This document shows, in pieces, positions 23,575-37,021 of a stretch of 64,000 nucleotides of DNA (the first letter of the stretch is position 1; each line of letters starts with the position of its first letter). This stretch comes from Escherichia coli (lineage in GTDB: Bacteria > Pseudomonadota > Gammaproteobacteria > Enterobacterales > Enterobacteriaceae): the NCBI RefSeq assembly GCF_030384885.1, contig NZ_CP128613.1, one strand, 5' to 3'. A model generated the notes under the pieces. The model saw nothing but the letters and a program-made list of their open reading frames with translations. It ran no database searches and was not told the origin of the DNA. The translations under genes were made by a program, and so were the position numbers.

Positions 23575-23660
23575 CCTGGTAGGCCTGATAAGACGCGTGA
23601 GCGTCGCATCAGGCATCGTTCACCATTGCCGGATGCGGCATTAACGCCTTATCCGGCCAC
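23575..23660. repeat. REP (repetitive extragenic palindrome) pair
   Basis: gcctgataagacgcgtgagcgtcgcatcaggc and tgccggatgcggcattaacgccttatccggcc palindromes between convergent ypfH and ypfN. Confidence 0.7.
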
Positions 23661-28900: not shown

Positions 28901-29033
28901 CTCGCACATTAGGCGGTGCAAGATCCGGGTATTGTTCAACGGGCAATGAGAAAATCGCCAGGGTTCCTGTCAGACACAACAGGATTGCCAGCACCCAAGC
29001 AAAAATGGGGCGATCAATAAAGAAATTCGCCAT
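25920..29033 (-). CDS. acrD: RND multidrug/aminoglycoside efflux pump AcrD
   Basis: 1037-aa RND transporter, [23 protein letters not shown]... Confidence 0.9.
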
Positions 29034-29104
29034 TAAAAGAGGACCTCGTGTTTCTGCGTATTGTTGTTGGCATGCCTTGCTTCACTGTAGCGGCAAGGTA
29101 CGGA

Positions 29105-29121
29105 CCAATCGTGGAGAAAAA
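29105..29121 (-). promoter_or_regulatory. Candidate BaeR box upstream of acrD
   Basis: Reverse strand TTTTTCTCCACGATTGG resembles the BaeR consensus TTTTTCTCCATDATTGGC as I recall it; ~75 bp upstream of acrD start. Confidence 0.45.
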
Positions 29122-29196
29122 AAGGAGTTAATGTAAATTATCATGCCCTTTTATACTGAACCTTAAGTGCAAGTATTCTTTGGTCAGTAGGTGGCA

Positions 29197-33850: not shown

Positions 33851-34894
33851 ATGCGCTATCGCATTTTCCTTCTCTTTTTTTTCGCTTTGTTGCCGACGTC
33901 TTTGGTGTGGGCGGCACCAGCGCAACGGGCATTTTCCGACTGGCAGGTCACCTGTAATAATCAAAATTTCTGTGTGGCGCGCAATACGGGCAATCATAAT
34001 GGACTGGTGATGACCCTGAGCCGCAGCGCCGGGGCGCATACCGATGCCGTTTTACGTATTGAGCGCGGCGGGTTGAAGTCGCCGGATGCGTCGGAAGGGG
34101 AGATAGCGCCACGGCTGCTGTTAGATGGCGAGCCGTTGGCGTTGAGTGGTAACACGTGGCGGATTTCACCATGGTTATTAGTAACCGATGATACGACAAC
34201 CATCACCGCGTTTTTGCAGATGATTCAGGAAGGGAAAGCGATCACCTTACGCGACGGCGATCAGACCATTTCACTGAGTGGCTTAAAAGCAGCGTTGTTG
34301 TTTATTGATGCCCAGCAAAAGCGCCTCGGCAGTGAAACTGCGTGGATCAAGAAAGGGGACGAACCGCCGCTCAGTGTACCGCCAGCGCCTGCGCTAAAAG
34401 AGGTCGCGGTAGTGAACCCGACGCCGACCCCACTTTCTCGTGAAGAACGTAACGATTTGCTGGATTACGGTAACTGGCGGATGAATGGTCTGCGCTGTTC
34501 GCTTGATCCGTTGCGTCGTGAAGTGAGCGTTACGGCGCTGACCGACGATAAAGCATTAATGATGATTAGCTGTGAAGCAGGCGCGTATAACACCATTGAT
34601 CTTGCGTGGATTGTGTCGCGTAAAAAGCCACTGGCTTCGCGCCCGGTACGGTTGCGTTTGCCGTTCAACAACGGTCAGGAGACCAATGAACTGGAACTGA
34701 TGAACGCAACATTCGATGAAAAATCGCGTGAACTGGTGACCTTAGCAAAAGGGCGCGGATTAAGCGATTGTGGCATTCAGGCGCGCTGGCGCTTTGACGG
34801 TCAGCGTTTTCGCCTGGTGCGTTACGCCGCAGAACCCACCTGTGATAACTGGCATGGGCCAGACGCCTGGCCCACGTTGTGGATCACCCGTTAA
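33851..34894 (+). CDS. ypfG: Periplasmic protein YpfG (DUF1176 family)
   Basis: 347 aa with N-terminal signal peptide MRYRIFLLFFFALLPTSLVWA. Confidence 0.8.
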   Translation: MRYRIFLLFFFALLPTSLVWAAPAQRAFSDWQVTCNNQNFCVARNTGNHNGLVMTLSRSAGAHTDAVLRIERGGLKSPDASEGEIAPRLLLDGEPLALSGNTWRISPWLLVTDDTTTITAFLQMIQEGKAITLRDGDQTISLSGLKAALLFIDAQQKRLGSETAWIKKGDEPPLSVPPAPALKEVAVVNPTPTPLSREERNDLLDYGNWRMNGLRCSLDPLRREVSVTALTDDKALMMISCEAGAYNTIDLAWIVSRKKPLASRPVRLRLPFNNGQETNELELMNATFDEKSRELVTLAKGRGLSDCGIQARWRFDGQRFRLVRYAAEPTCDNWHGPDAWPTLWITR

Positions 34895-34907: not shown

Positions 34908-35014
34908 AACATGTCAGCCTGATAAGACGCGTCAGGCCGGATAAGACGCGTCAGCGTCGCATCCGGCAATCAGCATCCGGCAATCAGCATCCGGCAATCA
35001 GCATCCGGCAATCA
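34908..35014. repeat. REP-like units followed by 4 tandem copies of a 14-bp repeat (gcatccggcaatca)
   Basis: Two gataagacgcgtcag units, then gcatccggcaatca x4 at 34959..35014, in the ypfG-tktB convergent spacer. Confidence 0.8.
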
Positions 35015-35017
35015 CCA

Positions 35018-37021
35018 TCAGGCACCTTTCACTCCCAGTACCTTATGCGCTTTTGCCACAATATTCTCGGCGGTAAAGCCAAAGAACGGGAACAGCTTAT
35101 CCGCAGGAGCAGATTCCCCATAACCCGTCATCCCGACAATTGCCCCTTTCAGACCAACATATTTGTACCAGTAATCGGCGATGCCTGCTTCCACCGCCAC
35201 GCGAGCCGCAACGTTAGAAGGCAACACCGACTCACGATATTCCTCATCCTGGGCGTCGAAAATATCGGTCGAGGGCAGGGAAACAACGCGTACATTGCGA
35301 CCTTCTCCCGCTAATTTCTCTGCCGCTTGCAGGGTGATTTCCATCTCTGAACCAGTGGCAATCAAAATAATATCCGGCTTGCCGCCGCTGTCTTTCAACA
35401 CATAACCACCGCGGGCAATCTCTTTTACCTGATCTGGCGTACGTTCCACCTGGGCCAGATTCTGCCTTGAGAGGATAAGCGCCGTCGGCCCGTTGTGACG
35501 CTCGACCGCCAGCTTCCAGCCCACCGCAGCTTCCACCTGATCACACGGTCGCCAGGTGCTAAAATTCGGCGTCAGGCGCAGACTGGCCAGTTGCTCAACG
35601 GCCTGGTGCGTCGGACCATCTTCCCCTAAGCCAATAGAGTCGTGGGTATAAACCATAATCTGCCGCGCTTTCATCAGTGCCGCCATCCGCGCGGCGTTAC
35701 GGGCGTATTCAACAAACATCAGGAACGTCGCGGTATACGGCACGAAGCCGCCGTGGTGCGCAATGCCATTGGCGATAGCGGTCATACCAAATTCACGCAC
35801 CCCGTAGTGAATATAGTTGCCCGCCGGATCTTCCTTCAGCGACACAGAACCTTTCCAGATGGTGAGGTTGCTGGGAGCCAGATCCGCCGAACCGCCGAGC
35901 AACTCAGGCAGCATGGGCCCGTAAGCGTTAAGCGTATTTTGCGAAGCCTTACGGGTCGCGATTTTCGCCGGATTCGCCTGCAACTCATTGATATATTTCT
36001 GCGTCGTTTTTTCCCAGTCTTTTGGTAAACCACCGCTCATCCGGCGAGTAAACTCTTCTGCCAGTTGCGGATGAGCCTTTTTATACGCGGCAAACTTCTC
36101 ATTCCAGCTCTGCTGTGCTTTTTCGCCTTTTTCGCGAGCGTCCCAGGCGTGATAAATCTCTTTGGGGATCTCAAATGGCGGATGATGCCAGCCCAGTTTC
36201 TGTCGAGCCAGCGCCACCTCTTCTTCACCCAGCGGTGCGCCGTGCGCCTCTTCTTTACCTGCTTTATTCGGTGAACCAAAGCCAATCACCGTACGGCAGA
36301 TAATCAGCGATGGCTTATCTTTTACGCTTTGCGCTTCAAGAATCGCTTCCTTCACCGCCTGCGGATCGTGACCGTCGATTTCATGGATCACATGCCAGTG
36401 ATAGGCTTCAAAACGTTTTGCCGTATCGTCGGTAAACCAGCCTTCGGTTTCACCGTCGATGGAAATACCATTGTGATCGTAAAAACCAATCAGCTTGCCC
36501 AGCCCCAGCGTGCCCGCCAGCGAACAGACTTCGTGAGAAATACCTTCCATCAGGCAGCCGTCACCCATAAACACATAGGTGAAGTGATCGACAATTTCAT
36601 GATCCGGCTGGTTAAACTGCGCCGCCAGTGTACGTTCTGCTATCGCCAGTCCGACCGCGTTCGCCAAACCTTGTCCAAGTGGACCGGTGGTGGTTTCAAC
36701 ACCAGGCGTATAGCCAATCTCCGGGTGACCAGGGGTTTTCGAATGCAACTGACGGAAGTTCTTCAGCTCTTCCAGCGGCAGGTCGTAACCGGTCAGATGA
36801 AGCAAACTGTAGAGCAGCATCGACGCGTGACCGTTGGAGAGAATAAAGCGGTCGCGATCATACCAGGTTGGATCGGTGGGGTTATGTTTAAGAAAATCGT
36901 TCCACAGCACTTCGGCAATATCAGCCATGCCCATCGGCGCGCCGGGATGACCAGAATTGGCTTTTTGTACCGCATCCATACTGAGCGCGCGAATCGCATT
37001 GGCAAGGTCTTTTCGGGACAT
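35018..37021 (-). CDS. tktB: Transketolase 2 (TktB)
   Basis: TPP-binding GDGCLMEG motif; start at [27 protein letters not shown] giving 667 aa. Confidence 0.9.

Follow-up and report, generated by a model that had tools for sequence, protein, structure and literature searches.

The spacer between ypfG and tktB

The window, by which we refer to the whole stretch of 64,000 nt of Escherichia coli DNA analyzed here, contains the convergent genes ypfG and tktB, with talA following tktB in the annotated gene order. Between them lie a REP hairpin and two arrays of short direct repeats which overlap the hairpin (Table 1).

Table 1. Features of the ypfG-tktB region in the window
Feature	Positions	Strand	Basis
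ypfG CDS (DUF1176 protein), convergent upstream gene	33851-34894	+	ORF list; RefSeq annotation of the identical strain 2013C-4282
Left-arm array, 19-nt unit GTCAGGCCGGATAAGACGC, 2.3 copies	34913-34954		Tandem Repeats Finder (period 19); repeat search
GCCTGAT of the distal left-arm copy	34917-34923		Complementary to ATCAGGC (35017-35023) across the tktB stop; MFE prediction, tktB-sense RNA
Canonical REP hairpin	34936-34967		Inverted repeat: 14-nt arms 34936-34949 and 34954-34967, 4-nt loop, 86% complementary
14-nt array, four perfect units GCATCCGGCAATCA	34959-35014		Sequence; Tandem Repeats Finder; repeat search
Degenerate fifth (terminal) unit CCATCAGGCACCTT	35015-35028		79% copy in repeat search; Tandem Repeats Finder extension
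tktB CDS (transketolase 2)	35018-37021	-	ORF list; RefSeq annotation; stop TGA is the reverse complement of 35018-35020

The four 14-nt units (also written gcatccggcaatca) follow each other head-to-tail with zero mismatches and start at 34959, 34973, 34987 and 35001 in the repeat search. Tandem Repeats Finder extends the array to 34959-35024 with a period of 14, 4.7 copies, 96% matches and a score of 118. As the chance expectation for 42 consecutive lag-14 matches in 64 kb is approximately 1.6e-19, the array is not due to chance, and it is the sole array with at least three copies across the whole window. A preliminary description of this DNA had claimed four perfect 14-bp copies in a position between convergent genes; the copies are confirmed by the sequence, Tandem Repeats Finder and the repeat search, and ypfG (+) and tktB (-) do flank the array.

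If the unit is read in the tktB direction, it consists of a 5-nt spacer, TGATT, and the 5' arm of a REP, GCCGGATGC. The whole region in this direction is GGT GCC TGA TGG (TGATT GCCGGATGC)x4 GACGC TGAC GCGTC TTATCCGGC, followed by C TGAC GCGTC TTATCAGGC TGACATGT... The first 14-nt unit doubles as the right arm of the REP hairpin, which comprises GCCGGATGC GACGC TGAC GCGTC TTATCCGGC and has within its stem the 2-base mismatch usual for REPs. The 19-nt unit of the left-arm array represents the loop and the 3' half of the REP, and its copies at 34917-34935 and 34936-34954 each contain one gataagacgcgtcag unit. The degenerate terminal unit (..GGT GCC TGA TGG) is the remnant of a z2-type REP arm, and the last codon and the stop of tktB (GCC TGA) sit inside it. 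The preliminary description had also reported two gataagacgcgtcag REP-like units, which the array was said to abut, and had suggested a REP-derived expansion. Both REP-like units are real (34921-34935 and 34940-34954), and the suggested derivation holds, since the 14-nt unit combines a 5-nt spacer with one arm of the neighboring REP hairpin. The adjacency is correct as well, but the array is itself part of the REP, and the tktB stop sits in its last, degenerate unit.

As expected for a REP of about 30-35 nt, the palindrome of the locus is imperfect and has a mismatch inside its stem, and its site is extragenic, between the ypfG and tktB stops; REPs typically lie at the 3' end of an operon. It shares its arm with other copies, as GCCKGATRMGRCGC has 12 matches compared to 0.45 expected, at four other loci of the window. 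The tetranucleotide GTAG, which is conserved at the foot of REP hairpins and needed for TnpA_REP binding (PMC3333891), is replaced by GTCAG at the start of both left-arm copies of the window (34913-34936); it is present in most E. coli alleles, among them the K-12-type and W-type alleles and in those of three further loci (L015, L016, L102). The locus is a REP, and the window copy is a variant without GTAG. In K-12, the element downstream of talA-tktB is named REP179a-c, according to PMC10100675, which quotes the EcoCyc name, and the RefSeq record of MG1655 has no repeat_region feature at the ypfG-tktB locus. The locus is the same, but while the K-12-derived allele (L004) combines two left arms with two units, the window allele carries four units, and its divergent left flank lacks GTAG. 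In a side observation, substitutions relative to K-12 cluster in this left flank in a way that resembles gene conversion.

Length polymorphism of REPs and BIMEs between E. coli strains has long been known (Bachellier et al. 1997, as cited in PMC2817692; Ton-Hoang et al. 2012, PMC3333891). Like BIME-2 and atypical BIMEs, the array is an intergenic, REP-built structure between convergent genes, in which the length of the tandem differs by strain. It differs from BIMEs, which are built as REP-linker-iREP of about 100 nt, in that its units are single REP arms of 14 and 19 nt in direct orientation and that the locus has just one complete hairpin; two opposed REPs with a linker were not found in the E. 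coli alleles, where the extra arms are direct repeats. Single REP arms, beyond whole BIME units, can therefore amplify in tandem. A classical BIME-type tandem is located elsewhere in the window, at 48333-48517, with inverted REP pairs, a 100-nt unit in 1.9 copies and a Tandem Repeats Finder score of 328; the REP arm matches within it span 48334-48466. At 23583-23657 lies a further REP cluster, whose three arm matches alternate in orientation.

In every predicted RNA fold of both strands the canonical REP hairpin is the innermost helix. For alleles with two left arms a second tier is predicted from the second copies of both arms, and any additional 14-nt units stay mostly unpaired in the predictions. 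The two complementary heptamers of the window haplotype, at 34917-34923 and 35017-35023, are predicted to form an outermost stem, which would enclose the whole array and take in the stop codon. The fold in tktB sense has a z-score of -2.1, that in ypfG sense one of -4.7. We dropped a terminator or promoter role, as no intrinsic-terminator-like site was found at the locus, and the promoter search returned one promoter-like match no better than shuffles. The identity with a known sRNA was rejected in the same way, as the Rfam search returned just one REP-type match below threshold: naRNA4 (RF02564), the HU-binding RNA derived from REP325, scores 39.2 bits at 34935-34995 (-) compared to a gathering threshold of 59.5. 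Sequence and structure of the hairpin are similar to those of naRNA4/REP325, but with a sub-threshold score the locus is not a member of this family.

Copy number and alleles in E. coli

To take the array from one strain to the species, units were counted in complete E. coli genomes with queries made of k synthetic units and 100 nt of the tktB flank. A genome was counted at a coverage of at least 80%, and the counts were confirmed by the exact start points of the alignments. The locus was found in 5,425 out of 5,426 genomes. Fifteen of these have no unit, 840 have one, 4341 two, 124 three, 34 four, 65 five, 5 six and 1 seven, so that at least one unit occurs in 5410 genomes, at least two in 4570, three in 229, four in 105, five in 71, six in 6 and seven in 1. 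Two copies occur in 80% of the genomes and at least three in 4.2%, and the four-copy class of the window accounts for 0.6%. Copy-number steps are whole units, and the expanded alleles are scattered among hosts and sources. The exact 461-nt allele of the window was found at 100% identity in strain 2013C-4282 only, among the matches listed.

The preliminary description had proposed VNTR behavior and a count of copies in other E. coli genomes, with an identical number in all strains as the outcome that would speak against it. The numbers at the orthologous site range from 0 to 7 in 5,425 genomes, and differing numbers occur on identical flanks, so that VNTR behavior is supported. It is extremely improbable that the array is an assembly or sequencing artefact, a reading which the census refutes, as the 56-nt array is shorter than any read and the alleles are graded in hundreds of independent complete genomes. 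Multiple array places per genome are explained by offset alignments in multi-copy arrays (for example in ET220 with five copies), and the genome search gave no evidence for the same array at other loci. One 29-kb record counted among the plasmids (NZ_CP019906.1, strain MDR_56) contains a 153-nt ypfG fragment at its very end (29013-29165); it is probably a misassigned chromosomal contig.

The Simpson diversity of the 5,425 genomes is 0.335, which amounts to no more than a moderate polymorphism. Two units were found in all K-12 derivatives and O157:H7 genomes sampled, which suggests that the unit number is stable within lineages and changes at a low rate. Behind the strong mode at two copies there may be a low mutation rate, common ancestry or stabilising selection.

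We fetched 25 E. coli loci from other records and parsed them for left arms and units. The left arm also varies, from one copy (L007-L009) over two (K-12, W, O157 and the window) to three (L015, L016, L102). Flanked by the YpfG protein WP_001270542.1 and the TktB protein WP_000087280.1 we observed two units in the K-12-derived L004, four in L013 and five in L018, while the pair WP_049254476.1 and WP_023281409.1 flanks five units in L002 and seven in L014. On the window-type flank (ACATAATAGCGGGAAC...GTCAGCCTG) three left arms are combined with two, three or four units, and two left arms with four units. Differing numbers on identical flanking proteins, and on at least four flank haplotypes, indicate that copy-number change is recurrent.

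One allele points to a participation of the degenerate unit. L019 has zero units and a hybrid junction, GCATC|AGGCACC, which is the product expected from a misalignment of the last full unit with the degenerate terminal unit. The hybrid allele indicates that the degenerate unit takes part in slippage.

In about 15% of the genomes a different GC-rich palindromic element replaces the REP, and one unit is retained (L010, L011). This element has a length of about 77 nt (CCCTCGCCCCTCTGGGGAGAGGGTTAGGGTGAGGGG...) and is present in L010, L011 and L019 as well as in L024 from Escherichia sp. E1V33. We take it to resemble the Box C repeats. Neither a Box C-like motif nor a copy of the element was found in the 64-kb window.

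The array can be compared to the VNTRs used for MLVA typing of E. coli, such as the ten loci of GECM-10 (CVN001-017, CCR001), with which it shares perfect head-to-tail units, a whole-unit allelic series and homoplasy. The GECM-10 units measure 39, 18, 15, 15, 18, 6, 6, 59, 6 and 6 nt. None is a 14-nt unit, and 0 out of 20 primers match the window, each having at least 5 mismatches everywhere in it, so the array lies outside these ten generic loci. Its diversity of 0.335 is below the average quoted for MLVA panels. The literature search did not find the ypfG-tktB array as a VNTR in any paper, and tktB and ypfG are not listed in the RepRanger supplements. The practical value is modest: as a length marker the array is easy to size and informative on lineage, with eight alleles by unit number, and more if these are combined with the Box C-like alternative and the one to three copies of the left arm.

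Origin of the REP and of the tktB stop

For the origin of the element we searched relatives of YpfG, with one genome per species. ypfG and tktB are convergent neighbors across Enterobacteriaceae. An overlap of 11 nt joins the two genes in Citrobacter, Kosakonia, Pseudescherichia and Yokenella (loci L025, L026, L031, L037, L041, L050, L064 and L068, at about 2234-2244 in each), where TktB ends in ...KVLNA* or ...KVLNV*, or in ...KVLNG* in Yokenella. In Escherichia a REP-bearing insert parts ypfG from tktB, TktB ends in ...KVLGVKGA*, and the final codon and the stop of tktB are supplied by the REP arm (GCC TGA TG). Insertion of a REP split two overlapping convergent genes and gave one of them a new stop codon.

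Further arrangements of the arm can be seen in other Escherichia. In L023 an intact z2-type REP (GCCTGATGCGACGCTGGCGCGTCTTATCAGGCCTAC) starts exactly at GCC TGA and is followed by a second, inverted REP; L023 and L022 (E. whittamii) both carry a y plus z2 REP pair. In E. whittamii the same arm is duplicated independently with a period of 15 nt, compared to 14 nt in E. coli, and in three Escherichia lineages an arm between stop and hairpin has independently been duplicated or spaced. From these comparisons the degenerate terminal unit of the window is an old REP arm that donated the tktB stop, and the imperfect periodicity left by this arm is the likely seed of the array.

Other genera have acquired REPs of their own, or inserts of another kind, at the ypfG/tktB junction. 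In Salmonella enterica subsp. arizonae and diarizonae (L034, L036) we noted a 421-nt ypfG-tktB insert at about 2245-2665, with a small ORF of about 76 codons and two CxxC motifs (MKINNGPVLCPHCGC...FCLMCHK...).

Mechanism of change and a possible spacing role

Beyond the anatomy, the REP identity, the polymorphism, the recurrence and the origin, which are observed, we infer slippage as the mechanism, and neutrality: the array is a REP-derived VNTR which probably changes by slippage among arm copies, with little or no selective effect. A single REP sits in the 3' region which the convergent ypfG and talA-tktB share. Its arm nearer to tktB (9 nt) has been duplicated head-to-tail together with a 5-nt spacer, and the opposite 19-nt half of the hairpin has been duplicated too. 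The first step was probably enabled by an older imperfect 14-nt periodicity, in which the tktB terminus GCCTGATGG, itself similar to a REP arm, precedes the true arm GCCGGATGC by 5 nt. Subsequently the copy number would shift through out-of-register realignment of identical units in replication (slipped-strand mispairing), probably aided by hairpins between arm copies. Simple slippage cannot explain every founding event, because the K-12-type 19-nt duplication has a junction without microhomology, which counts against it.

Arm copies might instead have been added by the REP-associated tyrosine transposase (RAYT) TnpA_REP. It would cut single-stranded DNA at C^T sites beside a REP to which it is bound, and units would then be gained by primer extension and strand transfer, in line with the model for BIME amplification. 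Among the substrate features of this enzyme, C^T sites, a perfect type I site (TGCC^TGAT) and the stem mismatch are present in the window. GC^TGATT marks the borders of each 14-nt unit and C^TGAC those of the window-type 19-nt units, and the type I iREP site has a match in the tktB end GGTGCC^TGATGG (cleavage rules in PMC3333891). Differences in BIME length are, moreover, unlikely to arise from slippage alone according to Nunvar et al. (PMC2817692). Such a fit does not discriminate, however, as any unit with one CT can be phased likewise, and the junction of the K-12-type 19-nt duplication is A|G and not C|T. The GTAG feature is absent: in the window allele GTCAG stands in place of the tetranucleotide that TnpA_REP requires, and yet its allele family still varies, which we count for slippage, while keeping in mind that the relatives L015, L016 and L102 keep one GTAG. 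In vitro the enzyme acts on BIMEs and iREPs, and amplification of single arms was not found in the literature searched. The gene tnpA_REP is absent from many B1 strains and from some B2 strains. We regard an addition of arms by RAYT as unlikely.

Another route to the same alleles would be RecA-dependent unequal crossing-over or gene conversion, either between arrays or with other REPs. Arrays of at least two units offer 28-98 nt of homology, and the clustered substitutions of the left flank (GTAG to GTCAG, GCCGGAT to GCCTGAT) resemble conversion from a z2-type REP. This homology is short for RecA, above all in the commonest two-unit state, and whole-unit steps on otherwise identical flanks are equally expected under slippage. 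We consider RecA-dependent exchange in place of slippage to be rather improbable.

The extra units form a spacer in the 3' UTR, predicted to be mostly unpaired, between the tktB stop and the REP hairpin. By geometry the distance from stop to hairpin is 3+5+14(n-1) nt, which amounts to 8, 22, 36 and 50 nt for one to four units; the hairpin of the window allele is therefore 50 nt away. The hairpin itself probably works as other REPs do, as a barrier to 3' exonucleases or as an attenuator, and the variation in copy number is most likely neutral or nearly so. The locus resembles the stop-proximal, ribosome-stalling REPs (Liang, Rudd and Deutscher 2015, as described in PMC12306157) in having a REP directly 3' of a stop, and in Escherichia L023 the REP arm itself holds the tktB stop. 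It is unlike them in the window, where the inserted units move the hairpin away.

This comparison bears on the question whether the copy number is functional, such that the distance between stop and hairpin tunes ribosome stalling or mRNA decay and with it the output of TalA and TktB, and the variation is selected. REPs at 15 nt or less from the stop are reported to down-regulate translation (Liang et al. 2015, cited in PMC12306157), and the geometric distances given above can be set beside this limit. Where two left arms are present, the second-tier helix is predicted to begin 11 nt past the stop with two units (K-12-type) and 39 nt past it with four, and the independently duplicated or spaced arms of three Escherichia lineages point in the same direction. 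Against this, 80% of the genomes share one copy number, and expansions to three or more units are rare (4.2%) and scattered among hosts and sources. The folds are predictions, and the z-score in tktB sense is just -2.1. We therefore hold a selected tuning by distance to be very unlikely, and it is a shade more doubtful still that the unit number acts as a heritable, reversible spacer which switches REP-dependent stalling and tmRNA-linked down-regulation of TalA-TktB on and off. An ordinary length polymorphism of the slippage type, with little or no selective effect, is most likely.

If the spacer reading were true, the hairpin would have been moved from a position with the stop inside the stem (some Escherichia) to 8-22 nt in the common alleles and 36-92 nt in the expanded ones, and the repeated arm duplications would represent selection for moving the hairpin off a stop codon that the REP had created. 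If stop spacing matters, the natural allelic series provides a ready test of the proposed 15-nt rule for translational control by REPs.

A last observation concerns the hairpin in L008 and L009, an allele class which includes ST131 and strain 536. Here the REP has two uncompensated substitutions in its arms (GACCGG... and ...CCGAC) and a weaker predicted fold (-29.5 compared to -33.6 kcal/mol), and none of the expansions observed belongs to this haplotype. This REP looks like a decaying one.
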